A DNA stretch of 64,000 bases, from positions 35,092,001-35,156,000 of the forward strand of contig OX597834.1 in NCBI GenBank assembly GCA_951406725.2, written 5' to 3'. The notes beneath the pieces were generated by a model. That model was not told the DNA's origin, did no database searches, and saw only the letters and a program-made list of their open reading frames with translations. Of the stretch, positions 3,804 to 63,757 are shown piece by piece. Every line of letters starts with the position of its first letter. The first letter of the stretch is position 1. Origin of the DNA: Octopus vulgaris. Lineage: Eukaryota. The position numbers and the translations under genes were made by a program.

Positions 3804-6486
3804 AAGTAGGAATATGCAAAACTTTACAAGTTATATAGCAAGTGAGTGGCAGGAGGATTGTTTTTTAGCTCCAGGTCTACTAGTCTCATTTAACAGACCT
3901 AACTTTTTATTTGAAGACAGTCCACCTGTGACCATCACAATGCACCATTTTGTATATCAAAGATTAAATGATCCAATATGCATTTACTTTTTTGATTTAT
4001 TTTTGATTTTGTAACCAGAGTTTTCACTTCTATTTCTAGCAGATCAAGATGAGGATAAACAACAACAATAGCAACAAGCACTGCTTACATTTATATTGAC
4101 CCTTACACTAAGATTTCTTTATTCAGATCAGTAAAAAAGAAGAAGAAAAAACAAATAAAGAAAGAAAAGAAGAAGAAAGACTAAAGATCAATCAGGCTTG
4201 AATTATTTGATTCAATAAAACAGAATTTAAACAAATTTCTTTATTGAAATTTAACAGACCATTTATCCAGTCCAAGAGATTGTTTGCAAAATAGCAGCAG
4301 AGGCTACAACAACAATAACAACAACAAATTCTACCAGGAATAATAATAATAATAATAATAATAACATGAACTTCCAACCTTTTGCTTCTTGAGGTCTCTG
4401 GGTGAGACTTGGAGTCAACTTGTACAAATATAAAGCAAAAGTCAAACATAGAATAATAATAATAATAATCTTTTCTACTCAAGGCACAAGGCCCAAAATT
4501 TTTGGTGGGGAGGGGGACGGTCAATTAGATCAACCCCAGTATGCAAATGGTACTTAATTTATCAACCCCAAAAGGATGAAAGGCAAAGCTGACCTCAGCA
4601 GAATTTGAATTCAGAACATAGCAGTAGACGAAATACCTATTTCTTTACTACCCACAAGGGGCTAAACACAGAGAGGACAAACAAGGACAGACAAACGGAT
4701 TAAGTTGATTATATCGACCCCCAGTGTGTAACTGGTACTTAATTTATCGACCCCGAAAGGATGAAAGGCAAAGTCGACCTTGGCGGAATTTGAACCCAGA
4801 ACGTAACGACAGACGAAATACCATTAAGCATTTTGCCTGGCATGCTAATGATTCTGCCAGCTCACCACCAATAATGATGATGATGATGATGATGATAGTG
4901 TTAAATTTTGGCACAAGGGCAGCAATTTTAAGAGTAAAGGAATAGACAGTTACATCAACCCCAGTATTCAACTGGTACTTATTTTATTGACCTTGATTGG
5001 ATGAAAGGCAAAGTCAACCTCAGTAGAATTTGAACCCAGAACATAAAGAGGTAGGAGAACAGCTGCTAAGCATTTTGTCCAATGATGATGATGATGATGA
5101 TGAAGATGATGATATTTGTGTTCCAAGCAAAATATGGTTATGGGAAGAACTTGCTTTTGTGTGTTATTTTCTTATATGTTTCATCCTTTTACTTGTTTCA
5201 GTCAATTCGACAGCGGCCATACTGGAGCACCACTTTGAAAAATCAACCCCAGTTATCCTACTGATCTCTTTTGGCACACTGCTAAGTTACTGAGATGTAA
5301 ATGAACCAACAGCAGTTGTCAATTAGCGGGGACACACACACACACATATATACACACAACAAACTTCTTTCAGTTTCCATCTGCCTAATTCACTCATAGG
5401 GCATTGGTCAGTCAAGAGCTATAGTAGAAGACACTTGCTCAAGGTGCCACGCAGTGGGACTGAACCCGGAACCATGTGGTTGGGAAACAAACTGCTTACC
5501 ACACAGTCATGTCTGCACCTATGAAACATTAATTTAATTTCAATGCTCGATATATTTATTATAAAACAAAAAAAACCAAATTTATAGAACCAAAAAAAAA
5601 AAAAACGTGAAAACAAAAAAAAAAGAAACAAAAAATTCATCTTTCACTCATGCTGAATTTAGAAAGCAATTATGATTTGTCGCTGAGTTCGTTAAAAGAC
5701 AACAGAAGCTAGCTTATGAAGAAGAGGGAAGTACAATCAATAACGATTCTTAGTTATAGACTGTTATTTGAAGCGGACAATCACATCATCGGCGACGTTG
5801 ACCATAGTCATAACAGATTAAGAGATCACTTCAACAAACATTCTGCTGCCGCCGTTGCTGCTGCTGCTGCTACTAACCGAAAATTCTAAAAATACGTCCT
5901 TCAATCAACTTATATTGCAGATAAGGACAAGAGGGCGGAGAAAGAGGAACTTTAGAATAGCTTTGAAAAACAATTGAAATTATTATTATTATTATTATTA
6001 TTATTATCATTATTATTATTATCATCATGGTAGTGTCCAGCAAGCTGGATGACATGCTTACCAATATTTCATCTGTCTTTATGTTCTGAATTCTAATTCT
6101 ACATAGATTGATTCTGCTTCTCATCCTTTCGGTAACAATAAAGTACCAGTGAAATACTGGGGGCAATGCAATCAACAAACCCTCTTCCCCAAATTTCAGG
6201 CTTGTGCCTATATGAGAAATCATTATTATTATTATTATTATTATTAAAAAGGCGGCAAGCTGCAGAATTGTGTGCGTGCTTAACAAAATGCTTAGCGGTA
6301 TTTCACCCATCGCTACGTTCCGAGTTCAAATTTTGCCAAAGTCATCTTTGCCTTTCATCCTTTCAGTGGTCGATAAAATAAGTACCTGTTACATACTGGG
6401 GTCAATGTAATTGACTATACCCCTCCTCTAATTTTCAGGGCTTCCACCTATAGTAGAAAGATTATTATTGGTAGAAAGATTATTAG

Positions 6487-45042: not shown

Positions 45043-46857
45043 ATTGGCCACGTCTTTCGTGCTATTGTTTAACGCTCGGTTAGCCCTGATAGAGTAGAGC
45101 TATAATTAAGGGTATCCCACCACATTTTAGTGCGTCCACCCATTGACTTTTCTCTTTCTTTTTCAAGACAGTAAAATATTCTAGATTCAGATGCCTTGGG
45201 GGTTTTTCTCTTTCTTTTTAGCCGGTCGAACGACCACGACAGGCTCCTATCATCATTAGCTAGATAGACATCAAGCTAATAACTCATGCAACTGAGTCAT
45301 TATAAACTAAACACGACATTGGACCTATACTTTGCAGTAATTTTCCACATAATAAGCCCTAAACAATTATGTTTCGATACGAGGCTTCGTTGACTCATCG
45401 ATACTGAAATAATCTTAACTTTCCACTAAAAAAAGTAGTGTTGTCCTCTCATAGAATGAAAATGAAGGCATTTGCGAAGAGGGATAAATTAATAAGGCAG
45501 CGGAAATTTCCCAAGTGTATATTTGAAGATATCAGGAACTGAGCCAAACATCCTGAACATCAAAAAGCATGTATAATGAGGAGGTTTCCGTAAAATGTAG
45601 TTAATATATATGTTGAAATAAAAATGAATAAAATTATAACAGGCCTATACATATATTGGAATGAAAAACGAGGGGCGGGGGAACTTTCACAAACAACTAT
45701 ATAACAATTATTACAAGACAGTCCCAGCTTTATATATGTATAAATTTCACAATTAAAAAATATTAACAATAGTACTGAATATGATAGTTATCCTGGTTCT
45801 TTTAAACAGTAAATGGTATTCTCTCAGAAACCATCTACAAGTGGATATACAGGGAACTTTACAGAAAACCTATTTTAATTTTATTCCAAGGCAGGTTGAC
45901 CGAGGTTATTATTCAACTGAGCACATTGAAATTTAGATCAGGACGTAAACATTGAAGTAAAAACAACGGATTACTAATGTATACCCTTTCCAAAAGCACA
46001 ATATGTAGTTTGTATTTAGAACTCGTCATTTTTAGACTTTATAACTTATAGAAAGTGTTTATCTAAAATGATACAAAAAAATTATAAACAAATGCACCAG
46101 GAGTGGGTGTCGAAATTTATGTTAATAGAATGTTACAGTAAACTTTAAACAACGTTCTCGACCAACACACACACACGTAATTCTTTGGTTTTACATTTAC
46201 TCTTGGTAATTGAGAAATACATATTGATTTTCTATTAATGAATAAAGTTGGTGTTGATGCCTGGCCATCAAAGTATAAAAATATTCTAGTTAAAATGAAA
46301 GTAAAAGAGATAATTTTAAAACATCTTACAATGAAAGAAAGCACTTCGTTCTTCGGACGTTGAAAACCATTTGCCGTTTTGGGTTTAGGGTACGATTTTT
46401 AATGACCTGGGATTATCAAAGATGTATTAATTAGGCGAGGACACGAATGACATTGCAGTTAAGTCTGATATATTTATACATATATTGTAATGTATATTTC
46501 AGTGTAGGTGTGAGAATAATTGCCTATTTCTGGAGTTTAACAGAGGGAATAGGCACTCACATGCATTGTATATCATCAGGTTGTGTCGTAATTTCTCGAA
46601 TAATAAATAGTTAGATGTGACGGTCAAGGAGGACATGAATGACAATGGAAAATAAAAGTGTTCAGGTGAGACTGTTGACTGAGACAAGTTGGTACGATTA
46701 GGAAAAATCACACATTTACGGGCTTTTCCCCACTACACACGTAACAATAAAACAGAAAGGCCAGGATGACAGCATTGGTTTCCAAATATGAGGCACGGAT
46801 AAGGAGAACCAGATATTGACAAAAATTAATATGGTTATTGGACCTGACTGATGTAGG

Positions 46858-48136
46858 GGTAGCTAGCACTAATTTATCAGTTGTGATACAATAATTGGAG
46901 ATTGAAAGAAGAAAACAAGAGACATGTGAATGACATTGAGAAGTAAGAAAACAACAAAGTGACGCCAAAGAAAGTCTATACACAACAGATGATAAATATA
47001 TTGATTTATAAGTGAGATGGTTAATAATGCCTGCCGGACTTCACTGTATTGTAAATAGATATAGGTTTTAAGAGGGTTTACATATTAACAAAGACAACAC
47101 ATTGATGAGACTTATTGGTTGTTACACACTATTTTAAAATGATAAATTTCGTTTATCTTTGTGGAAACAAAACAAATCTTTGAGTTGGAAAAGTCGCTCG
47201 TAAATAATAAAGAGACAGAGAGAAAGAGAAAGGAAGAATAAACCGTGTGTCTGTCTGTGTGTGTGAATGTGTGTGCGTCAGAGAGAAAGAAAGAGAGAAA
47301 CATAGAAATAGTGTCTGTGTGTGCGTCGAACACGAGATGAGAAGCTGGGATGAACATCTCAATCCCTTTTTTTCATACGAAACAAGTCGATAAAATAGGT
47401 AAATGAATAGAAAGGTTGTCTGCTCAACAATCTTACCTACGGCTGACCGCTGTTATTTCCTCTTCTATTCGTAAAATCCCATCCTATGGGGTAATAACAT
47501 ATCCATAGTGAGTAGAACCCAGCAGTATATCTACTCATGCTACGCTTCGTTTAATTGTAAACTCGCTGCCTTGACAGGTGCTCATACAAAACCCGAAATG
47601 GTTGCTAAAAGATCGATAATTCATCATCACATCACACTTCTGCTAAATACTTGTTGCATGAGCTTTATTTGTTTATTTCTTGGTCTTTGTTGTTGGGTTT
47701 TTTTTTGTCTCTTGTTCAAGTGTTACCGATTACGAGCGAAATAGAAATCTTGTCAACTCATCAGATATATAATTGTGTTTTAAATATATAATCTTAATAA
47801 TAGACTTGCTTTGTTTTCACATGCGAAGAATAACTTTTAAAAGTTTATAAATCAAGTATTGTTTACATGTATATAAATAAACAATATTTCTTGCAACTTT
47901 TTTTTTTTCCTTCCGATAGTTATTAGTGTGACGGGAAGGGAGACGGACTGGTTTCGTTCCGTCTTTATCAAAGTTTTTATATAGTCTAATGTTGCAATTA
48001 TATAAACCGGATGTATATCCCGAGTATATAAAGCGTGTGAGTACGTGTTTCGGTCATTTTTTGCGGAGCAGTTTGTTGGCTGTTGCTGAGGTATGTGCTT
48101 TATAAGTCAATCAGCAAGACCGGGGGTAATCGTAGC
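46858..48136 (+). repeat. ~1.25-kb near-identical segmental duplicate, copy 1 (upstream region, promoter, exon 1)
   Basis: Reads almost base-for-base with 60612-61841, apart from scattered substitutions and small indels. Confidence 0.95.
48006..48059 (+). promoter_or_regulatory. Pol II core promoter of paralog 1: ETS-like site, TATA box, Inr
   Basis: ACCGGATGT 48006-14, TATATAAA 48025-32, TCATTT (TCAKTY Inr) 48054-59 with the A exactly 31 nt after the TATA start. Confidence 0.7.
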
Positions 48137-48435
48137 GTATATTAAGATATATACAGCTTAAGCATGTTGAGGACAATCCGTAGTTTAAGACTTAGCCATT
48201 TTAGTAATCGAACTATTTTTTTTCATAATGTATTAACGTTAATCCCCTTTCTTCATAGATTAGTATGTATTTTATGACTAGAATTAATATATACTTATTT
48301 TTTTTCGCTTTTCCGGTGAAGCTAAATTTTTTTTTTTTTATCTTTTATCTCTTGAAAAAAGACATGGCTTTAATGTAATATATAGTATTTTGTGTATAGA
48401 TTTACGGTGATATAACTAACGGTTCTGCCGTGAGT

Positions 48436-48541: not shown

Positions 48542-48663
48542 ATTTCGGTGATGACATTCGCGATTCTGAAGATCAGTTGTTCTCTTCGTGGTGCAGTTTT
48601 TGTGCTTCCGAAGTTCTGACAACTTTTTTACATTGCTGTCTTAGAGGCATTTGTCTGAGAAAT
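48542..48663 (+). ncRNA. SNORD15: Box C/D snoRNA, U15/SNORD15 homolog, copy 1 (D' guide altered)
   Basis: Box C GTGATGA 48548-54, D' CTGA 48566-69, D CTGA 48655-58, terminal stem ATTTC/GAAAT. The 3' end TTAGAGGCATTTGTCTGAGAA matches my recollection of vertebrate U15. Guide GAGGCATTTG is complementary to conserved LSU rRNA CAAAUGCCUC; the D+5 rule gives the A equivalent to human Am3785/yeast Am2281. Confidence 0.88.
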
Positions 48664-49177: not shown

Positions 49178-49259
49178 AAATGTCCTGAGAGTGATGACCT
49201 TGTGGATCGACTGATTATCTTGACGATTTCCCTTCGCCCCTATCTGACTCGGGACATTT
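49178..49259 (+). ncRNA. Box C/D snoRNA family A copy 1 (SNORD80/snR60-type D guide)
   Basis: 12-bp terminal stem AAATGTCCTGAG/CTCGGGACATTT, C GTGATGA 49191-97, D' CTGA 49211-14, C' TTGACGA 49220-26, guide TTCGCCCCTAT 49233-43, D CTGA 49244-47. The guide pairs with LSU AUAGGGGCGAA (human Gm1625/yeast Gm908 equivalent). Confidence 0.92.
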
Positions 49260-49983
49260 TAGTAAATGTTTTTTTTGTCTTCTGTGACTGGTGGTAGCGG
49301 TACAACTGAAATACCAGAAGATGGTGTTTTAGTAGATTAAATACGTTGTCTGATTGCTTTCTTTTCGCTCCTGTATATTTGATGTGTCACTTGTTTTATT
49401 TTTCACGCTAGCATAAACATGTAATTTGCTGTGATTGATATAGATTTGAGTGCCATCGTGGCGTGGAAAAAAAATTACGGTTAATATCTAGATCCGCACC
49501 CGGTGGGAAAATTGGAAACGAAAATGTGTAACAGTTGTAAGGCATCGTATATTGACGGGAAAAAAGCGCGCTGACAAACGGGGGGTGGGGGGCTCGGGAA
49601 ATTCCCAGGATCAACCGTAGAGGATCCACGCCCAGGTGGCAAAAATGGAAAAAAATATGTGTAACAGGTGTAAGGCATCGTATATTACTGTATGTTATAT
49701 ATCAGCTTTGCATGTTATTTAGATCACTTTCGTTTGTCTCAAAAGATTTTTATCCCTGACTTTTAATGAGAATAACCCAACAGGGGGAAAGCACAATGTG
49801 TGCCTTTGTTCATAGACCAACTCGGGTCCAGGGGACTTACTGTATAACGTATGGAAAGTGTCGTATGGGGCTGGGGTGACTGATAATTGTGGAGGGCGTT
49901 GATCCATTTATACTGCTAATAGACGGTCAACAATTGTAAAGGTGTTTTATGGACATACTGTTATAGTGTCAGCATTACGAATT

Positions 49984-50081
49984 AGCTTCTGATATCATGA
50001 TGAACACTAGGTCGGAGTACTGTGCTATTTTCAGCAGTGATGACAGCCCTACTCGTTCACTTCTTCTGAATATCAGAAACT
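49984..50081 (+). ncRNA. Box C/D snoRNA family B copy 1 (target unassigned)
   Basis: Stem TTCTGATAT/ATATCAGAA, C ATGATGA 49997-50003, degenerate D' (CTGT), short internal hairpin TGCT/AGCA, C' GTGATGA 50037-43, D CTGA 50066-69; paralog at 53030. Confidence 0.82.
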
Positions 50082-50777
50082 AATTCTGTGAGCTCCATAA
50101 CCCTTCAGTATTCGGTCAAATGTAATATTTATAAGCATTGTTTTGAGTCACGTTTTATCCCGTAGCTTTGGGATTTATTTTTAGAATGATATTGTTGGAT
50201 AGGTGCGAGAAACCAAAGATGATCGGTTTGAATGTTAGTGTTACTCTTAGGTTCCTTTTGCGAATTGGTTTTTTAAACCTGCCTTGTATAAAGTTTAATA
50301 AAATATGTTTATAAAAGATAAATATTTCCATGTCCCCCTTCTCCTGTTCTAAAATATCTGACTGGTGTGACCCAAAAATTTGTTTATAGCTTCTGTTGGA
50401 TTTCGTGTTGCTCTTCTAAGGGCGTATAGAATAGGTATGTATTGTTTCGTTTGTGTGCATCATGTACTAAAAGTTCTGGCTGCTGTTCTCCAGTGTTTTG
50501 CAAAATCAGGCTCATACTACGAATAAAATTTCTGCAACTTTTGTAGTAGGGTGTGGTGGGGGGCAAAGAATAGGCAGCCATTTAAAAGAACTTCATTTTT
50601 AATTACTATGGTTTGGTTTTGAGATAGAGGGGTATCAAAGCGTTTAATTGAATATACTTGTTGGACGGCTCAATATTTTACACTTGCAGGTAGAAGCATG
50701 ACTCTAGGTTGCTTCAGCCTTATTCAACCATGGTAAAGTAGAAAAGATTTCTCATTGAATGAGATGAGATTTGGCAA

Positions 50778-50860
50778 AAACTGTCCTGAGGATGATGATC
50801 TTGTGGATCGACTGATACCTTGACGATTTCCCTTCGCCCCTATCTGACTCGGGACAGTTT
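50778..50860 (+). ncRNA. Box C/D snoRNA family A copy 2
   Basis: 13-bp stem AAACTGTCCTGAG/CTCGGGACAGTTT, C ATGATGA 50792-98, D' 50812-15, guide TTCGCCCCTAT 50833-43, D 50844-47. Confidence 0.92.
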
Positions 50861-51196
50861 ATGATTGCTGCAATGAGTGAGATAAGAATAATGCCATGTA
50901 TTTGGAGTGATATCTGCTGCTGGTGTTGCGAAACTATCACGGTAAAGAGCACCTTTCGAGCACTGGGCCTCACAGAAGCAGTCAGGAAGGGCACCTAACT
51001 GTAGAATTAGGCTGGAGTCTGGCACTGCCCCTCAGCTTGCCAGCATGGACGTTAAATGATGATAGATAATGTGGTAATTTTGAAATATGCAGAGGTTGTT
51101 TCAATGGATTGAAGAATTTCCCTGGTGAAATTCTTTTTGCCCTTGTCTCACTTAAGACATTTCGTTGATGTTTTCACTTACATATACTGTTTGGGG

Positions 51197-51401
51197 AGAG
51201 TGCCTTATAGTTAACACGCTCACTGGTAAAATTTCCACTTATTTCGTTTCTTTTTCTGAAAATTTTTGTTGCGTCTTGCAACCTTTTCAATAGTTTTGAC
51301 AGTCAAAACTATTGAAAAGGTTGCAAGAAGCAACGAAAGTTTTAGAATGATAAAGGAAATAGGGGGAAATTTTACTGGTGTGTGTTAAATTATAAAGCAC
51401 T
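51197..51401. repeat. Long palindrome centred on 51301
   Basis: Perfect 27-bp arms TCTTGCAACCTTTTCAATAGTTTTGAC / GTCAAAACTATTGAAAAGGTTGCAAGA with a 1-nt spacer, extending imperfectly to about 100 bp per arm. Confidence 0.88.
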
Positions 51402-51564
51402 AAAATAGAATGACTCTCCCCAGACACAACAGAATGTACTTCAACACACAAACTCACATAAAGAATCTTGCTAACCAAATCCAAAAGCAAAATTCACTTA
51501 CATAGTTTTCCTTTTAGTATTCACAATCTGGTTGTTGCAATAAACCTCTCTCTCTCTTGTTTTT

Positions 51565-51637
51565 GTCCTGAGAATGATGATCTTGTGGATCGACTGATGT
51601 CTTGACGAATTCCCTTCGCCCCTATCTGACTCAGGAC
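51565..51637 (+). ncRNA. Box C/D snoRNA family A copy 3
   Basis: Stem GTCCTGAG/CTCAGGAC, C ATGATGA 51574-80, D' 51594-97, guide 51615-25, D 51626-29. Confidence 0.9.
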
Positions 51638-51856
51638 TGTTTATGAATATTATAAGTGGGATAAGATAATTTAAATTTTGATACAAGGTTCCTTCCACCC
51701 CAATAATGTGAAAGATTCTAAGGCTGGTTGTCATGTGGATTGACTTGTTTTGCATATTCTTCTTTACCTCTGTCTAGCTTAGAACATTTATATTGTAGGT
51801 TCAAAGGTGGTTGGGAAATGGTTTCATTTTTTCACAGTGGACAATGTGTGAAAATA

Positions 51857-53009
51857 TAGAAAGGTGATGTTGAAAAGATCTTGGCTTTAAGGGTAAAGCT
51901 GGGAGGTAGGTCAGAAGATATACAGAATATGATGTGGTATACAATATATCTTTCTCTTTTTTGCAGATTTAATGCATGATGGCAGCTCCTAGTGTATTTT
52001 GGGAGAATTGAAGTACAAGTAGTAATGAAATTACTCTTTCTGCAAGGCAAACAACCAGCAGAAATCCATGGCCATATGAAGAACGTCTTGAAATATGGCT
52101 GTCCATCTTACTCCACAATAAAAATCAGGCTAACTGATGATCATTTTGGCAGGACAGCCAACTTCTGCAACTACAGAGGACTCTGTGCATGTCATGATTC
52201 TCGAGGACTACAGGGTTTCAGCTGAGACTCCGAGGATTTCCCGCGAAAGAGTTAATCACTTCATCCACAACATTCTGGGCATAGGAAAGCTTTCTGCAAG
52301 GTGGGTGCCTGAATGCAGATCTCAAGTACATCAGGATGACAGCATCAGAGGTGATTTTGGACCAGTCTGCAGCAGGAGAGGTTGATTTTATGGCTTGTTT
52401 AGTCACCTTGGATGAAACTAGGCTTCATCCCCGGACCAAGCAGCAATCAATGGAGTGGAGTCACGGTTGTTCACCACATCCCAAGAAGTTTTGAACCTGG
52501 AAAATGACTAGAAAGGTTCTGGCTTCAGTGTTCTGGGAGTACCCCTTTTATAATACCTGCCAAAGGGTGCACCATCAATGCAGAATACTACATGTCTCTG
52601 TTGGATGAAGCTTTGATGCCATGGAAAGCTGACCCATAATGCCCTGCTTTTGTAGGGTAGTTGTATCAACACATGAAACCCTACAGAAACTACACAGCGG
52701 CTTTGAATTGGTAGACCTCCGACCGTACTCTTCTGATTATCACCTCTTTTCACAACTGAAGAAACGCCTCCACAATGAAATTTCACTCTGAGGGGTGATT
52801 GTTGCTACAACCTCCCAAGTTCTTTTTTCAGGGTTTAGAAAAGCTGAGGGACTGCTGTGATAGGTGTGTGAATCTGAGAGATGAATACGTTGAATAAAAT
52901 CACTAGCAGCTAAGCCTGGTCTGTTTGGATGATGTGGCTATGATAGATTAACTAATTCTCCTGTATTTTCTTTTATCTAGAGCCAGGGAATTTTAAGTAT
53001 CCCTTTGTA
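51857..53009 (+). mobile_element. Decayed Tc1/mariner (mariner-type) transposon with frameshifted transposase
   Basis: ORF fragments VMKLLFLQGKQPAEIH..PSYSTIK (HTH), KLSARWVP (WVPHEL motif), LVTLDET (first catalytic D) and SDYHLFSQLKK (YSPDLAP region). Degenerate TIRs end in TA. Confidence 0.88.
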
Positions 53010-53029
53010 TATAATGTTACCATTACCAA

Positions 53030-53125
53030 TAGTTTCTGATATCATGATGAACACAGGTCGGAACACTGTGCTATTTTCAGCAGTGATGACAGCTCTATTC
53101 ATTCACTTCTGAATATCAGAAACTA
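53030..53125 (+). ncRNA. Box C/D snoRNA family B copy 2 (target unassigned)
   Basis: Perfect 13-bp stem TAGTTTCTGATAT/ATATCAGAAACTA, C ATGATGA 53044-50, C' GTGATGA 53083-89, D CTGA 53109-12. Similarity to copy 1 stops near the stem ends. Confidence 0.85.
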
Positions 53126-53861
53126 ATTGTGTGATGTCTTGTTCTTTGATTCCCCTTCACTTATTCATTTCTTAAATCAATGCTTTGTAATCATGAATTT
53201 CAATAAAATGCTTTTATTAAAAAAGAAATAACTTGTCTGTGCTTTTCCTATTCTGTTTTTAGCCCAGTTGGATTTCATCTCACTTTTTCAAGGACATGTA
53301 CTGAATTGAAGTTTGGGCCACTGACCTATATTTTTAATACTTCACAGCCAGAATTAATCCTTTAGCATTCAGATTAATTTATCTAGTGTAATACTTATTC
53401 ATCACATTTTTTTAAAAAGTCATTTAGTGTTTTGAAGATGTGATTGTTTATTTTTAGAATGACATTGTAGGGTGGGTGTGAGAGGCTGAGGCTGGTCAGT
53501 TTCAACATAAAGCAATATTTGAGCCAGATATGGCCATTTAAGGGGTTATTGAACATTTAGCTCCTGCAGGAGAGGGTTCTTGCATTTTGGGTTTCTCATT
53601 TTTCTGGATTTCTAACCCTGCAAAGGAACTTCTTTTAAGAATACATTTGAAGAGGATTACTAGGAATCTAATTGAATCTTGTAGTATTTTGAGGAAAGTC
53701 AGCCCAATTATATTTTACACTGGCAGATAGAGGGATGCAACTCGGGTCGTTTCAGTCTTATTAGACTTTGGTTGAGTGGAAGGTTAACGTTGGTGGCCAC
53801 AAAGACATTGATGGTATTGATTTAGAATTTTAATCCTACAAGTATGGAGTGATTTGGCTGC

Positions 53862-53885
53862 AATGTCCTGAGGATAAACTGATTG
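53862..53885 (+). pseudogene. Possible deleted remnant of a family A snoRNA
   Basis: AATGTCCTGAGGAT..ACTGATT matches the family A 5' stem and the D' region. It lies in the expected position after family B copy 2. The match is short. Confidence 0.35.
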
Positions 53886-54685
53886 TAAATGGGTGTGGTA
53901 AGAGGATACAATAAGCACCACATTTTACTGTGTGTGTGATAATGGTAATACTTAAGTATACCAATTTCTGATCCATTACCTTTGTTTAAATTCATTAGGA
54001 AAATGATGACAAATTTAGTAGAATAATTTTGTCATAGTTGAGCTGGTGTTTGAAACAAATTAAAATGGAATTCTGTGTAAAGTTATGGAATCGCAACTAA
54101 GTAAAGTCTTAGTTGCATTTGTAGTAAGAAGCTTGGTTTGGCAAAAGAGACAGAATACTGGGGTCAGTTCATTTGACTTAAATTTCTTCAAAGTTGTGCC
54201 CCAGCATGGTCACAGTCTAGTGACTGAAACAAATAAAAGATGTGTTTATAGCAATATTTCAAAGTCAGAAGTTTTTTTAGGTCTAAATAATTCAATACCA
54301 GGGTGGGGGGCAAGCATGGGCTGCTCCCAGGTGGTACATGCACTAGTTACACCACTTCATGTTGCTCAAAGACACACTAATCTGTTAGTAGTTTTTGGTG
54401 AAACTGTTAACAGTTCTTTGAAAATAAATCTCATTAGGCAGCTGCTTCCATGGCAAGTAGGTTTACAGGGAGGAACTTGTTTTTTTCTTGCTGAAATCAT
54501 CTTCTGACATGGTTAATGACATTCATCCACAGCTTAAACATATGTTGGAAACTTTTGCAATATGCTTTGACATTAAGAAACTCCTTTTCTGGCAAGCCCT
54601 ATCAATGCATGCAAAATATCAGGTGTTTCTTAACAAAATATGGTGACTGTACTTTACCTGTATGTTGTACACCTGGGTTCAGTAC

Positions 54686-55255
54686 TTAATTCTTTAGCAT
54701 TCAGAATATTTTGTTAAGTGTAATACTTATTTACTCTTTTACTTGTTTCAGTCATTTGACTGTGGCCATGCAGGAGCACCACCTTTAGTCGAGCAAATCA
54801 ACCCCAGGACTTATTCTTTGTAAGCCTAGTATTTATTCTATCGGTCTCTTTTACCGAATCGCTAAGTTACAGGGACATAAACACACCATCATTGGTTGTC
54901 AAGCGATGTTAGGGGGACAAAAGCAAACACCTAAACATGCACATATATATGACGGGCTTCTTTCAGTTTCCGTCTACCAAATCCACTCGAGGCTTTGGTC
55001 GGCCCAAGGCTATAGTAGAAGACACGCAGCGGGGCTGAACCCGAAACCATATGGTTGGTAAGCAAGCTACTTACCACACAGCCACTCCTGCGCCTATTCA
55101 CAGTTTTGAATTATCTTGTAGCTTTTTGAGATTTTTATGATGTAGCTTAGTATTAGAATGACATTGGAGAGTAGATGTGAAGGGCCTGTTTGAATATAAA
55201 GCAGGTAGAATGTTCTGGTCATCCATGGCCCATTTAAATAATTCTAAAGGGTTAA
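54686..55255. mobile_element. piggyBac-like MITE interrupted by a SINE (54730-55094)
   Basis: TTAA..CTTTAGCATT start and CTAAAGGGTTAA end flank a full minus-strand family 1 SINE. Confidence 0.7.
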
Positions 55256-55846
55256 ACAGAATTATGGAAACCAGGATAAATTTTCAGGTGGAATCCATCT
55301 ATGCAATCAGGGATCTGCCATAAACAGAAGTAACAATGATACCTGGTGGTAGTTGTCCAAAATAACTGAAAGGTTGATAAACTGAGGGCTGAAGGTTAGA
55401 TTGCATTTAGCTACATGATCACCTCCAACCAGACCCAAGTGATTCTTCTTATTAATTATTATATATTCAATCCAGCTAGCTAAATGATGCTATTATCATT
55501 TCTACAATTGAATACCAATTTGCCTAACTCCAAGAACGTAGAATTTTCCCATATCTAAACACATTTTGCTCTGAAGACTGGAAAGGAAGCAACCTCACAT
55601 GTATGATGATGATGATTCTTATTTACAGCCATCAAGTGATGGCACACATAAACAGACATATATACACACTTGTTTCAGTCATTTGACTGGCCATGCTAGA
55701 GCACTGCTTTGAAGGGTTTTAGTTGAACAAATAACAAATTGAAGCCAGGACTTATTTTTTTAAGCCTCTCTTTTGCTGAACCATTAAGTTACAGGGACTT
55801 AAACACACCAACTCTGGTTGTTAAGCAGTGATGGGGAACAAACAGA

Positions 55847-55883
<37 letters not shown>

Positions 55884-58800
55884 AGGCTTCTTTCAGTTTC
55901 AGTCTACCAAATCCACTTGAGGCTTTGTTTGGCCTGCAGCTATGGTAGAAGACATTTGCCCAAAGTGACTGAACCTGGAACCATGTGGTTGGGAAGCAAG
56001 CTTACCAATATTTAGCAGAAGTAACAGTGACTCAAGGTCTAAGAGTTTCATACCTTGACACTAGAAATTCAGGCTTTAAGTCATTCTTCTAAATGTTAAA
56101 AAAAAAATTTACACATGCTCATATTTGGAGTTGTTTGCACTGTGCAGCTTACCAGTTACCAGTTCCATGTCTAACCCATGCCAGCATGGAAAGTGAACAT
56201 TAAATGAGGATATATATATATATATATAAAATATACTACTTGGCGTTAGGGAAGGGCATCCAGCTGTAGAACCTCTGCCAGATCAGAATGGAGACTGGCG
56301 CAGCCATCTGGTTCACCAGTCAAATTGTCCAATCCATGCTAGCATGGAAAACAGACGAAGGAAGATGATATACTACAGGCTTCTTTCAGTTTCTGCCAAA
56401 CATATTACACTTGCACATTTTGGTCTAGCTGGAGGTATAGTAGAAAACACTTGTCCAAGGTACCACGCAGTGGGACTGAACCCAAAACTGAGAAGCAAGA
56501 TTCCTAAATACATTACCAAGAAAGTTTCTAAAAGCAATTTCTAGAAATAGCAAATTCTGCTGGCATTGCATTGATTTGTAATAATACTTCCAAGATAGCA
56601 AAACTTGTTCATAACTTTGACAGGTTGACTATTAATTACAAGATTATTGGAGTTGTGTTCCCATGGCAGTCATTGATTTGGTTTCATCAAAATTAATTAA
56701 TTAAACTTTTTTTTTGCTTGTCATTATCATTGACATTTTTTCACATTCATTTTTCGATGCTCACATAGATCAGAATTTGTTGAAGCAAATTTTTTAATGG
56801 TTAGATGCCCTTCTTGTCAACCCTCACCTGTTTCCAAGTAATGTAATATTTTCTTCATGGCTGGACATGTTTTCATGGAAAATTGAAAATGAATGGAACC
56901 ACCTTTTTGACAGTAATGATGATCTACAAATAAGATGCATGCATATACAATGAAATTCAGTTTCTGTCAAGGAAATTCTCTCACAAGGCTCTGGTCAGCC
57001 TCAGTCTATAGAAGACTCTTGCCCAAGATGCCATGCAATAAAACAACCTAAGACCATGGGTGGTTTTTCTTTTACTCATCTCAGTCATTTAACAGCAGCC
57101 ATGCTGGAGTACTCTTAAATTAAAAGGGTTGGTGAGTAAATTTAACCAGATAGCTATGCCTATTTGTCTTCAGAATGTCTTATCAAGGTCGGTATCATGC
57201 TCATTTCGGGGATCATTCATCTAATGAATGTCACCATATTTCTATTGAAACATTGATTTTGGTTCAATTAATTTTGAAAATAATGAAGAATTTATTAAAA
57301 TAACTTTGTTATTAAGCTGATATTTAGAACAAATTAACATGAGATTTCGATGGAAGGTTTTTAAATCACTTTGTAGCATAGAACTAGGAACGGTCTCAGG
57401 TGGGTTGATGTCAGATAGTTGTTAATGACCTTTGAGGTCTAGAACATTCCTCAGAGTATTACAGTTGATACAATACATGAAGTTGGTGGAGGTGAAGTTA
57501 AATTGGTTAATGAGGTGGAATTGAGGATTATGACCAATAATAAGCATGCCATTGGAAATGAAATCAAATGTAGAACTGGAATATTTAAAGGCATCAAGAC
57601 TATTTTAGAGGTCCCTTTTATAAAAGAAGAGTTGGGGATTAAGAAAGACTGGTAATTAAAGTTAATATGGATAGCTGATTGAAGAGGCAGGTAAGACCAG
57701 TGAAAGTCATAGGAAGAACATTTTGGGTTTGTGTGTTTAGAATAAAAGAGCAGAAGGGGTTTTTTTTTTGCTATGGTTTGGAATCACTGGAATGCAGAAT
57801 AGACTAACACTTCAGTGAAATGCTGTGCCAGGAAGACATGCTGCATTTCATCAGTTTTGTAAATAGATATTGGAACCAAGATTTATTGATGGTTCTGGTG
57901 TGAAAAGAGGAGGTGATGTAAAGATAATCAATATTGACTGGAAGATACCAGAAGTATTTGAGCTGGTAGAGATAAATTCAAAAGATGGGTGGAAAGTGTT
58001 GAAGATAATTTCATGTGAAGAGTGTTTCATCATTTAACATTCATTTTTCCATGTTTGCATGGGTGAGAAGGAACTTGCTGGTTAAGAGCATGGGTTACTA
58101 ACCCCAAGATTCCGAGTTCAATTCTAGGCAGTGACTTGTATAAATAATATCAGCACAAAAAAAAAAAAAAAATTACCTTAGGAATGAGAACCCAGGGTTG
58201 GGTTCAAAATTCTACCAGGACACCTGATGAAGGCTGAAGAGTAAATCAACCAAAATATGGTAACAACAAACAAGATGAGGACATCTGTCCTTCAGTTCCT
58301 CAATAGTACAGTGCAGCAGTTTTACGGGTTGTGGATTGGTTGATTATTGGGCTCTTGGGATGCCGTCTCACTCCATCAAACAACAGCATCACTCTCGGTA
58401 GGTTTGATTTTGTCATTACTCCCACTTATGGATATCAGAGTTCATCAACTGTGATATTTAGTCTGGGCTCCTTTTTCAAATTAAATCAATTCTGACAGCA
58501 ATATTTCTTCGCGGATTGAACTATTCCAAGTCATTTGTTTATATCATGCTGTTCTGTTTAACATAGACAACTAAAATCATCAGTGTGTAAATAAAAAAAA
58601 AATTAAGCCTTCGATGAACAATAAAGCATAGAAATGAAACCTTCAGCATCCGACAGGGATAAAATTTATCATGAATGGTTACTATAGCATTATGTGGAAC
58701 GGTAGACGTTAACTGAGGGGAAGCTGGCTGGCGAGTTGGAGTTTGGTAAATTTTATTGGTGTTGAAAAAGCGAATAAAGCTGTTCATAGATGTGCATTTG

Positions 58801-58900
58801 TTTATCGAAGAAAATACGAGCGGAGAGAACAGGTGAACAAACGATGGCGAGATGTATACTGTAGTGAACGAAGTCACGGTAAAGATTGTTTACGTTAGGT

Positions 58901-59068
58901 CAGTGCTTTTCAACCTTTTTGCTGGAGCGGAACCCCAAGAAAACACTTCACTGGCTCGAGGAGCCCCTGTGCAATAATTTAATTGTCTTATGCACACATA
59001 TCTGCACAGGAGAATTAAAAATTACTGCCGATTTTAGCAATTTTTGTAACCCTGGTTGAAAACCACTG
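58901..59068. mobile_element. hAT-type MITE
   Basis: TIRs CAGTGCTTTTCAACC/GGTTGAAAACCACTG; perfect 8-bp TSD CGTTAGGT at 58893-900 and 59069-76. Confidence 0.92.
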
Positions 59069-60611
59069 CGTTAGGTGAACCTCTTGGACTTGCTGAACCG
59101 TATTTGGAGTGATACCTAATTATTGACCACACCCAATTATTCCGACCCTTAACTATTATCCACACAGTACTGTCATTTCCGAAAGTCTAACCAGATGCAA
59201 TATCATATAATAGTGTTGCTTGCTAGACACGGCATGGATAGGGATCAATGGCGATAGCAAATCGAACGGAAAAGCAAGCATAAGGCATGTAAGATGCGAA
59301 TGGAATTGCATAAAGTTATTAACTCTTATCCGGAACTCTCAAGCAACCGGTTTCAAGGGAAAATAAAGTTTTGTTAATTAGAGTCAAAATAATTTGTATT
59401 AATTAACTGTCCTTATAAGAAAGTTTCTACTGCATATTTCACTGCATTTACAGTACCTGCATTTTATTTGGTTAATGAAGCTTGTTCTTTAATTAGATGA
59501 AATTATATCTTCATTTGTATTTCGTTTCTACTATATTCAGAATATTAATTTTATATCTATATATAGAGAGAGATGGGGGGAATATTAAAATTTTGTAAGG
59601 CGCTATGGTAATTTCAAAAATGATGATCAGATATCCGGAAAATTCAGTTATCCGGCCACACTCCGATCCCTGTGGTGCTGGATAGGCGGGAGTTTACTTT
59701 GTGTATGTGTGTGTACATTTTGATGTCCAGGCATTACTGGACAATTTTCGTGTTTAGCACTCGATCAGTTTTAATCCAACAGAAGCGATCAAAGATGTTC
59801 CAATTTTGGCCATCCTGACATTTTTTTTCCAGGTTCAACGTTATCTAAGAGTACATTTTCCAATACATTATTCCTATTTTATTCAGAGGCGGAGATGTAT
59901 GTTTTGAAAGAGATTTGGCTGCTTTTTCTAGCAAATCAAGTAATCATAATTATTATGCATGCTCCTCCCGCTCATGTACAGGGCAGTGTTATTGTTTAAC
60001 CCCGGGTCACTGAGCGAATAGATCTTATGATTAACGGCAGAGCAAGCACGACTATTTCTTCTTTCACCAGGACACTATACCCTAAGGCGATATTAACCAG
60101 TTGTTTGTTTAAGATAGTAACTTCTAATTTGAGGGAGATTTGGCTAATATTTCTAGCAGGGTGAGATGTTTATGCAGAGCCCAGGACCGTCTCAGCAGCA
60201 TTATAGGCCACCGGGGAAATCAAAACGCTTGGTCCTATTGATTTATTGGCAGCAAGCCACAGCATACATAAATCATAACTAAGGCCTCAAGGCAACTGCC
60301 CTGTGAGCCCATATCTTAAAAGGACACTGATATTGGCTGTTGTTCACTTGGATATTGGTCATTCAGGGGATAAAATAACAGATAAAGGACACAATACTCG
60401 CTTTGAACAGGACTGGTCAGGTAAGGTAAATAAATATAGATGATTATGGACAGTACTATGGTGAGATGGTCAAAAATAGGAGCAGAATTTGCGGCGGAGG
60501 TAAACAATACGTACACCATCCGTTTTCGGCGTAACAAAAACCCTAACCCTAAACATCGGGTGTACGTATTCTTTACTTTCGCCAAATTTGCTTCATATTG
60601 AGGACAGTAGC

Positions 60612-61841
60612 GGTAGCTAGAACTGATGATTCAGTTGTGATGTAATAATTGGAGATTGAAAGAAGAAAACAAGAGACATGTGAACGACATTGAGAAGTAA
60701 GAAAACAACAAAGTGACGCCAAAGAAAGTCTATACACAACAGATGATAAATATATTGATTTATATCTGAGATGGTTAATAATGCCTGCCGGACTTCGCTG
60801 TATTGTAAATAGATATAGGTTTTAAGAGGGTTTACATATTAACAAAGAAAACACATTGATGAGACTTATTGGTTGTTACACACTATTTTATAAATGATAA
60901 ATTTCGTTTATCTTTGTGGAAACAAAACAAATCTTTGAGTTGGAAAAGTCGCTCGTAAATAATAAAGAGACAGAGAGAAAGAGAAAGGAAGAATAAACCG
61001 TGTGTCTGTGTGTGTGCGTCAGAGAGAAAGAAAGAGAGAAACAGAAATAGTGTCTGTGTGTGCGTCGAACATGAGATGAGAAGCTGGGATGAACATCTCA
61101 ATCCCTTTTTTTCATACGAAACAAGTCGATAAAATAGGTAAATGAATAGAAAGGTTGTCTGCTCAACAATCTTACCTACGGCTGACCGCTGTTATTTCCT
61201 CTTCTATTCGTAAAATCCCATCCTATGGGGTAATAACATATCCATAGTGAGTAGAACCCAGCAGTATATCTACTCATGCTACGCTTCGTTTAATTGTAAA
61301 CTCGCTGCCTTGACAGGTGCTCATACAAAACCCGAAATGGTTGCTAAAAGATCGATAATTCATCATCACATCACACATCTGCTAAATACTTGTTGCATGA
61401 GCTTTATTTGTTTATTTCTCGGCCTTTGTTGTTGGTTTTTTTTTTTGTCTCTTGTTCAAGTGTTACCGATTACGAGCGAAATAGAAATCTTGTCAGCTCA
61501 TCAGATATATAATTGTGTTTGAAATATATAATCTCAATAATATACTTGCTTTGTTTTCACATGCGAAGAATAACTTTTAAAAGTTTATAAATCAAGTATT
61601 GTTTACATGTATATAAATAAACAATATTTCTTGCAACTTTTATTTTCCTTCCGGACTAGTTTCGTTCCGTCTTTATCAAAGTTTTTATATAGTCTAATGT
61701 TGCAATTATATAAACCGGATGTATATCCCGAGTATATAAAGCGTGTGAGTACGTGTTTCGGTCATTTGCGGAGCAGTTTTTTGGCTGTTGCTGAGGTATG
61801 TGCTTTATAAGTCAATCAGCAAGACCGGGGGTAATCGTAGC
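60612..61841 (+). repeat. ~1.25-kb near-identical segmental duplicate, copy 2
   Basis: Direct repeat of 46858-48136. Confidence 0.95.
61714..61767 (+). promoter_or_regulatory. Pol II core promoter of paralog 2
   Basis: ACCGGATGT, TATATAAA 61733-40, TCATTT 61762-67; identical spacing to paralog 1. Confidence 0.7.
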
Positions 61842-62292
61842 AGTTATATTAAGAAAGATATCTTAAGCTGGAAACAATCTCACTTTAAACTACTTAATTT
61901 TAGAATTTAATAGTTAACTAGAACCGTAAGATTGCCGTTTATTTAGGAGGAACAGTATGGATGTGAGACAATCGCACATCGACATTTTCTTTAATTTCAT
62001 TGCATATATACACATTATTTTATTTAGTCGAATATTAGTTTAATTCACTATTAAGTAATAATTAATCTTATCTAAAATATAAAGATTAATTAGTAAATTT
62101 AAAGGCGACTTTCATTTCACTGTCGCTTGATAACCAATTCATGGATTTCACTTTATTTAAAGCATCGTTTTCTTATGGTAATTAGGATTCTCTTTAGAAT
62201 TTTAATTTCTTAGTGAATCGATCGGTAGGATTCTTTTTTAAAAGTTTAATTTCTTTATTAGTGAATCGATCGTTGAAGAGTCGAGGCGCCCT

Positions 62293-62364
62293 GCGGGAAA
62301 TTGGCGGCAACCATGACCACGTGGTGTCGTCTATTGCATGTCTCCAGAAAACTACTACACGTGG
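62293..62364. promoter_or_regulatory. Paired CACGTG E-boxes plus E2F-like GCGGGAAA in intron 1 of paralog 2
   Basis: GCGGGAAATTGGCGG 62293-307; CACGTG at 62318-23 and 62358-63. Confidence 0.6.
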
Positions 62365-62393
62365 CGGCTTTCTCATTTAGTATTACTGCAGCT

Positions 62394-62517
62394 TTTCTAT
62401 GATGACAACGATGACGAGTCTGAGGGCAATTTGCTGTCTTCGTGGTACAGTTTTTGTACTTTTGAAGTGCAGTTAACTTGCCATATCTGCTGCTTCTAGA
62501 GGCATTTGTCTGAGAAA
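62394..62517 (+). ncRNA. SNORD15: Box C/D snoRNA, U15/SNORD15 homolog, copy 2 (both guides intact)
   Basis: Box C ATGATGA 62399-405. D' guide GATGACGAG 62410-18 plus CTGA 62420-23 pairs with LSU CUCGUCAUC (human Gm3792/yeast Gm2288 equivalent). D guide GAGGCATTTG 62499-508 plus CTGA 62510-13. Stem TTTC/GAAA. Confidence 0.93.
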
Positions 62518-62979
62518 TAGCTGCTTTCAATACTTCATTCATACTATGCCCCGAGTAGTTTTTCTAACCTCTGTGGAACTTGATCTATATTTTACGTCAC
62601 GAATTGGCAGGTTTTTCGAGAAACAGGCCGCACTAAAAGAAAATCGGGGTAATTTTTAGTTAGGTATGCAATTAAGGAGTCATGCGAGCTCCATATAATA
62701 TATACTAATGGTAATTTTTCGCTAGGCGTCCTTATTGTCTTAAGGGTCGTGGTGAGAAATAGTAATTTTTCGTTAGGGATTCCATTTAAAGTCCCGCAGG
62801 TTCCCTCGTAACTGGTTTACAGTAAATCGTTCTGCATTTTCTCTTTAGTTGGGGTTGGCAGGAATGTATCTGGTGTTCAGCTAGCAGTAATTTATAGTTT
62901 TGATAATTATTAGTTTAAGACAAAATGCCTATTAGAAGTTATTTGTGTGGTTGAATTTTAATAGGGTCTGCGAAGGTGC

Positions 62980-63056
62980 TGTTTGCCCTGATGAATTCTT
63001 GGACTAGAGTCTCTGAAAAATTTTAATTTGAAGACAAACTGTCCACTGAGCAAATA
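62980..63056 (+). ncRNA. SNORD52: Box C/D snoRNA, U52/SNORD52 (yeast snR78) homolog
   Basis: Stem TGTTTGC/GCAAATA, box C TGATGA 62989-94, guide GACTAGAGTC-T before D' CTGA 63013-16, C' TTGAAGA 63028-34, D CTGA 63046-49. The guide is complementary to LSU GACUCUAGUC (human Um3925/yeast Um2421 equivalent by D'+5). Confidence 0.88.
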
Positions 63057-63673
63057 ATACCTTTCGTTATCTGTCGATCATGCCATATTTGTTCACATAG
63101 TGTATAAATTAGTGGTAGGCTTCGTGAGTCATACCGTAATTCGGTCTGTAATCGCAGCTTAGATTTTTTTTCGGCCAGTTTAATTTATAAGTTAGTCATT
63201 TTGATCGATTATCACGGGTTTTTTTCTATACGACCATTATTTTTTAACAGTAGGTTGTGATTTTTAGCAGAAGTGGGTTTCCGTTTTTTTTTTTTTTTTC
63301 CTCTGAAAATTTCCATGGACTGGGTTTTGGTTTCAACGGATTCACTTTTATTATAGTGTAGGATCGTTTTATTATGGCGCTGATTTTTTTTTTTTTTTTG
63401 TATTTGGTTATATGCAGAAATAGTTTACGACGAATACCTTTTCGTTCATGACTAGGGTCAGGTACTTCGTCTTTATGCCGGCATTTAGTTTTGTAGAAAT
63501 AGCAGCCAGCTCCTTAGGGGTAAGGAACTCTTAATGCAGTTTTATGATAGTAAGATAGCCGTATTGCTTCGTATTTAAGATTATTTAGATAAGACTTTGA
63601 CTTGGTATAGATTTCGTTTTAGTCATTTTTTTTGTATTTAACTATGGTGATACGTTATCTAGTCACAGTGTTT

Positions 63674-63757
63674 GAGATGTCCCAAAAGTGATGATTTCGT
63701 GGATCGACTGATTTCTGACGATTAATCCTTTTGCCCCTATCTGATTTGGGACATTTC
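63674..63757 (+). ncRNA. Box C/D snoRNA family A copy 4 (second host paralog)
   Basis: Stem GAGATGTCCCAAA/TTTGGGACATTTC with compensatory changes relative to copies 1-3, C GTGATGA 63688-94, GTGGATCGA plus D' CTGA 63708-11, guide TTTTGCCCCTAT (C>T gives G:U), D 63741-44. Confidence 0.92.

Follow-up and report, generated by a model that had tools for sequence, protein, structure and literature searches.

What does a box C/D snoRNA methylate when one of its two guides is that of a well-known family and the other is not? This question is raised by four snoRNA copies, A1 to A4, in a 64,000-nucleotide stretch of the Octopus vulgaris genome (the whole of which is called the window here). Their D guide is of the snR60/U80 type, and their D′ guide is unlike the one known for that family. 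The initial annotation of this DNA recognized both features, and both stand: the D guide places the copies in the snR60/U80 family, and the D′ guide differs from the consensus of RF00309, the corresponding Rfam family, at 4/8 positions. From this difference it was concluded that the D′ guide had been swapped for another one with a new target, a reading that arose because the guide was compared with a generic rRNA and not with the rRNA of the species itself. When octopus rRNA is used, a different answer is obtained. With a probability that we put at about 0.9, the D′ guide has co-evolved with the octopus 28S rRNA at the ancestral snR60/U80 site, and the predicted products of the two guides are Um1246 and Gm1337.

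Structure of the four copies

The D′ guide sequence GTGGATCGA is found exactly four times in the window, always on the forward strand (at 49202, 50803, 51585, and 63699), and in 4/4 copies CTGA, the D′ box, stands directly on its 3′ side, just as had been noted before. Each occurrence lies in a unit of 56–57 nt, counted from box C to box D, which contains C′ and D′ and is closed by a terminal stem of 8–12 bp (Table 1). A1–A4 thus have the structure of box C/D modification guides: C and D boxes, internal D′ and C′ boxes, and a terminal stem. In the four-copy alignment, the invariant columns amount to 6/7 for C, 4/4 for D′, 6/7 for C′, and 4/4 for D. The D′ guide columns are invariant throughout (9/9), against 18/43 columns outside the boxes and guides; with independent columns, such a difference would have a probability of about 4 × 10^-4, a figure that overstates the case and is too generous because copies A1–A3 are close paralogues.

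Table 1. Coordinates of the snoRNA copies and of the duplicated upstream block (positions in the window; WC, Watson–Crick pairs).
Feature	Position	Strand	Remarks
Copy A1, snR60/U80-type box C/D snoRNA	49178..49259	+	12-bp terminal stem
A1 boxes	C 49191-49197; D′ 49211-49214; C′ about 49220-49226; D 49244-49247	+	
A1 D′ antisense element, positions -10 to -2	49201..49209	+	8 WC + 1 G:U with 28S 1243-1251
A1 A at position -5	49206	+	Opposite U1246 of octopus 28S
A1 D antisense element, positions -11 to -2	49233..49242	+	10 WC; predicted target G1337 of octopus 28S
Copy A2	50779..50860	+	C 50792; D′ guide 50802-50810; D′ 50812; D 50844
Copy A3	51561..51642	+	C 51574; D′ guide 51584-51592; D′ 51594; D 51626
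Copy A4, most diverged	63675..63757	+	C 63688; D′ guide 63698-63706; D′ 63708; D 63741
Block upstream of first snoRNA cluster	46853..48163	+	88-99% identical copy at 60607-61868
Duplicate block, ahead of second snoRNA cluster (which holds A4)	60607..61868	+	

Pairing of the D′ guide with octopus 28S rRNA

Both guides of every copy were scanned against the species' own 18S, 5.8S, and 28S rRNAs, ITS1, ITS2, and 2 kb of the 5′ETS, and 28S positions are numbered from C20:23976852 on the minus strand. For 4/4 copies, the D′ guide has its highest-ranking ungapped partner in 28S 1243–1251. Guide positions 2–10 pair there by eight WC pairs and one G:U in A1–A3 and by nine WC pairs in A4, and the duplex energy is -13.6 to -14.9 kcal/mol. 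U1246 stands opposite guide position 5, in a WC pair and in register; the D′+5 rule had been expected to point to a U, and it does so at this site. The next-best partner in the rDNA scan has seven WC pairs and one G:U, and the 8-mer complement of the guide is present once in the 18.4-kb rDNA unit. Two other stretches of 28S, at about 4052 (seven pairs) and about 1314 (six pairs), were considered as D′ targets and rejected as too short. Compared with the consensus duplex, that of the octopus D′ guide lacks one pair, since -11 is mismatched, and its terminal pair is G:U in 3/4 copies. The octopus duplex conforms to the rule reported for zebrafish, nine pairs over guide positions 2–10 (PMC7668251), with a WC pair at position 5.

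Compensatory changes at an ancestral site

Octopus 28S 1243–1251 aligns without gaps to positions 827–835 of RF02543, the Rfam LSU model, and the consensus of these positions is the reverse complement of the consensus D′ guide of RF00309. By this alignment, U1246 is the position of yeast Am817 and human Am1534, and G1337 is that of yeast Gm908. The D′ guide is accordingly predicted to direct methylation to a U, whereas the nucleotide methylated there in yeast, human, and plants is an A. The octopus rRNA departs from the eukaryote consensus at 4/8 positions (U827C, A830U, U832C, and U834C), three of which are upper-case, that is, highly conserved, in RF02543. Against the RF00309 consensus, the guide has changed from A to G at -2, from U to A at -5, and from A to G at -7 and -9. 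These four guide changes face the four rRNA changes and restore a WC pair at each, and the 4 unchanged guide letters face unchanged rRNA letters. By simple counting, a coincidence of the same four of eight positions, all complementary, would occur about once in 5,700. Because the match is letter for letter and lies at the ancient site of the family, it is likely that the guide changed with its target and was not switched to another one.

The rRNA changes can also be viewed within the rRNA fold, in the region of the two targets, whose helices we take to be H32/H33. C827 and C834 are compensated by changes of their partners to G at 939 and 917, respectively; the change at 917 lies opposite the -1 letter of the D guide, which has no need to pair. 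The combination of C832 with A919 is flagged as non-standard, and 830 lies unpaired in a junction. Because the rRNA's own helices hold compensating changes for two of the four, it is likely that drift of the rRNA led the way and that the guide followed. The three A to G changes in the guide, against U to C in the rRNA, could have taken a path through a tolerated G:U pair. For the change from U:A to A:U at the methylated pair, a mismatch would have been unavoidable, and several guide copies together with many rDNA copies may have buffered it.

D guide and family assignment

The D guide matches that of RF00309 and pairs with octopus 28S over 10–12 pairs (11 WC and one G:U in A4), with G1337, which is RF02543 position 921, at position 5. 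The two predicted targets, U1246 and G1337, are 91 nt apart in octopus 28S. The same spacing of 91 nt separates Am817 and Gm908 of yeast, both assigned to snR60 (PMC5699541), and Am1534 and Gm1625 of human (PMC11542601), and the site pair of RF00309 is listed for plant, human, and yeast (PMC3511168). Judged by both predicted targets, A1–A4 are the octopus orthologue of snR60/U80. Rfam at its gathering scores gives no match in the window; at a low threshold, A4 aligns to RF00309 with 27.7 bits (cut-off 41) by way of its D guide, and A1–A3 are unlisted for this family at E up to 10. Because the RF00309 score is below the cut-off, A1–A4 are not formal Rfam members, and their orthology rests on the two targets. 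A weak alignment to SNORD12 reflects common letters in the box region of that family, not its guide, and was discarded. The neighbouring snoRNA family B, for which Rfam gave no name, was also dropped as a second tracking case, its 18S site being in a low-conservation part of the model.

The target site in octopus rDNA and elsewhere

Thirty genomic 28S places were fetched out of 69 candidates, of which 40 had been scored; the duplicate rows L009–L012 are excluded from the counts. The places were located by means of the genome's own neighbouring sequence, so that a strongly divergent second class of rDNA could have escaped retrieval. The exact octopus site is present in 23/30 places, and in 7/7 of those in the C20 tandem array. 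Among the remaining places, two have a G:U-compatible change at the end, three show other decay, one does not cover the site, and one has an A. The target position is U in 28 of the 29 covered places, with A only in the decayed fragment L046, so the D′ product would not be the 2′-O-methyladenosine that characterizes snR60/U80. The consensus form of the site occurs in none of the 29 covered places. The octopus 28S contains the H88 break motif, which is conserved in incirrate octopuses (PMC13321053).

A U at the target position is also seen in at least 113 metagenome stretches, a count that covers U-bearing stretches only. Among the metagenome matches listed, the octopus form of the site is absent (0/113), and many downstream variants are present. 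Identity to octopus 28S is about 68–75% in the best 15 of the 113 matches listed, and since even the best identity is only of this order, no cephalopod is among them.

Genomic context and other copies

A1–A4 are spread over two clusters that they share with other C/D snoRNAs, and a duplicated block of 1.3 kb lies ahead of each. No protein-coding frame was found near the clusters among the 24 stop-to-stop frames of at least 120 aa inspected, and because of this there is no protein handle for synteny with squid or cuttlefish. A GT donor-like site can be read from the sequence at about 48092, inside the first block, and this block probably supplies a non-coding host gene with its promoter and first exon. 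A1–A4 would be expressed from introns of such non-coding hosts and assembled into snoRNPs. Contigs from a run guessed to be RNA span the cluster without splice joints, an observation that has no bearing on expression.

In the whole genome (2.8 Gb), eight matches were obtained, namely the four window copies and four dispersed partial copies (C2, C7, C11, and C12), and GTGGATCGA is intact in 4/4 of the dispersed ones. One of these, L004, begins 4 nt before box C, stops at box D, and continues into an oligo-A tail, as would be expected of the ends of a retroposed mature snoRNA. In a close relative, with about half of the sequence words shared, a contig over A1 differs by four substitutions, all outside the snoRNA, and by one gap to which no place is assigned. 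A second related organism has one difference, whose place is unlisted.

Alternative explanations

The unfamiliar letters of the D′ guide invite the idea of a replacement, with a lineage-specific methylation directed either to another LSU site, at about 2012–2022 of octopus 28S, or to a non-rRNA target. At the proposed LSU segment, copies A1–A3 do form a duplex (-10.8 to -12.0 kcal/mol), with extra pairs past a bulge, but A4 reaches only -9.7 kcal/mol, and the whole range falls short of the energies at the orthologous site. Octopus 28S has G where an A had been assumed, so that six contiguous pairs are left; the pair adjacent to the target is a G:U, and the bulge follows. Outside rRNA, the RNAs covered by the scan, U1, U2, and U6 (three copies each), offer at most six contiguous pairs. 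A replaced guide would not be expected to keep unchanged letters facing unchanged rRNA letters, and a perfect partner exists at the family's own site, itself changed in octopus. A swap is thus very unlikely, although the proposed segment may be a minor second site. What survives of the lineage-specific methylation is the predicted base, U, and not the novelty of the site, which is ancestral. As for a coincidental complement of an orphan guide, an 8-mer match somewhere in mature rRNA is not rare (6% of 100,000 shuffled guides and 10% of random 8-mers have one), and for this reason the argument rests on position. Only 0.12% of 100,000 shuffles match the fixed site 28S 1243–1251, and the observed match falls at the sole expected position, in the expected register, with the D target 91 nt away, which makes chance extremely improbable.

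It is also conceivable, albeit unlikely, that the guide co-evolved with the rRNA and is kept for base-pairing, chaperoning helix strands in assembly, while the U is un- or partly methylated. Each side of a hairpin carries one of the two snR60 sites, and a folding role has been suggested for this snoRNA (PMC5699541). The metagenome stretches indicate, in addition, that U is viable at this position in other eukaryotes. Against this reading, a perfect D′ CTGA is present in 4/4 copies, and the -5 letter is WC-paired in register. Fibrillarin methylates all four riboses. Zebrafish SNORD34 retained methylation through a change of base (PMC7668251).

Comparison with known systems

The preferred reading, a methylation guide that changed together with its rRNA, sets A1–A4 beside their closest relatives, yeast snR60, human U80 (SNORD80, with U77), and AtU80 (RF00309, clan CL00070). 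Like these, the octopus C/D RNA carries two guides, a D′ guide of the A817 type and a D guide of the G908 type, for sites 91 nt apart, and its D guide is nearly identical to the RF00309 consensus. It differs from these in that its D′ guide carries four compensatory changes, with Um instead of Am as the predicted product, and in that it is much shorter (56–57 nt from C to D), exists as four copies in two clusters, and scores below the Rfam cut-off. The same G908-type guide is found in nematode ceN111 (RF01615) and fly Me28S-Gm1083 (RF00528). The ceN111 consensus has the usual letters on the D′ side, and the octopus D′ letters are in neither consensus.

A similar event has been described in zebrafish, where three compensatory changes in SNORD34/LSU-2824 turned human Um into zebrafish Gm; this was called remarkable, and two further such cases were found (PMC7668251). 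In octopus as in zebrafish, guide and rRNA would have changed jointly, and with them the identity of the methylated base, which in octopus is a predicted one. However, SNORD34 is another family with another site, and methylation was measured there and is predicted here. In octopus, four of the eight pairs have changed, and the site is one that is listed for plants, yeast, and human alike (PMC3511168). An octopus ribosome structure (PDB 9EHO, EMD-48049, from O. bimaculoides) has been reported together with lineage-specific core changes (PMC13321053); in that text no account of modifications was found, and neither "snoRNA" nor "methylat" occurs. Term searches of PMC6984369, PMC8817022, and PMC11014333 gave nothing on an A817-type site. 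The literature searched contained no publication on cephalopod guides, although one may exist in subscription journals or in supplementary files.

Implications

Guide–target coevolution is already known, and the surprise is limited to that extent; octopus snR60/U80 offers a clean, testable case and not a new kind of system. Rfam misses diverged snoRNAs such as A1–A4, and "orphan" guides of fast-evolving lineages should be tested against the rRNA of the species itself. For a ribosome with a cryo-EM structure, Um1246 and Gm1337 make a precise prediction. The conserved feature at the junction is likely to be the ribose mark and not the underlying base. We consider it possible, if somewhat doubtful, that the octopus Um occupies a junction where the methylated nucleotide has been Am from the last common ancestor of eukaryotes onward, that the methyl group was selected through four guide–target changes including an unavoidable mismatch, and that this is one of many cases. 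If this is true, the drifted core rRNA of cephalopods would provide a datable series of guide–target pairs crossing fitness valleys.

Neighboring box C/D snoRNAs

The snR60/U80-type copies lie among other box C/D snoRNAs, whose guides were scanned for partners in the rRNAs of the same genome. The D' guide for G3384 has been retained only in the second of the two SNORD15-like copies, while the D guide for A3377 is found in both, and for the changed D' guide of the first copy the scan gave no partner scoring 8.5 or higher. A further C/D family, present in three copies, receives no name from Rfam. The D' guide matches 18S C1898 in two of these copies; in the third copy, where it has drifted, its 9-pair match is to 18S C1582. 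This family also has a conserved element near box D, which resembles the complement of 18S at about 2377-2386, out of register.

Box C/D snoRNAs neighboring the snR60/U80-type copies (L015, sequence reaching past the window end)
Feature	Position	Guides
SNORD15-like copy 1	window 48548-48658	D guide for 28S A3377 kept; D' guide changed
SNORD15-like copy 2	window 62399-62513	D guide for 28S A3377 and D' guide for G3384 kept
SNORD52-like snoRNA	window 62988-63049	D' guide to 28S U3517, 11 Watson-Crick and 2 G:U pairs
snoRNA just beyond window end	L015 2-57	D guide fits 28S A4469
C/D family without Rfam name	window 49997-50069	
C/D family without Rfam name	window 53044-53112	
C/D family without Rfam name	L015 129-202	

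Dispersed copies, repeats and rDNA

Partial copies of the snR60/U80-type snoRNA are scattered elsewhere in the genome (L004, L005, L006 and L007). Two of them end in oligo-A and are retrocopies, and one of the four carries the genomic 3' flank of copy A2.

A long, near-perfect hairpin occupies window 51198-51400. Its depth in DNA runs is very high, which marks it as a MITE-like repeat. Many miRNA models match it, all below cut-off, and we do not claim it as a miRNA.

The 28S of this genome has, at about 4080-4087, the H88 break motif reported from incirrate octopuses, and many 28S fragments are dispersed on other contigs. The ITS1 contains about three tandem copies of a unit of roughly 300 nt, and the 5' region of the adjoining 5.8S is visibly diverged.

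Duplicated upstream blocks of the putative host

The upstream block of the putative non-coding host (window 46853-48163) is duplicated at 60607-61868 with 88-99% identity, and the snoRNA-bearing parts behind the two blocks have diverged far more than the blocks themselves. Recent gene conversion or block replacement possibly acted on these upstream blocks.
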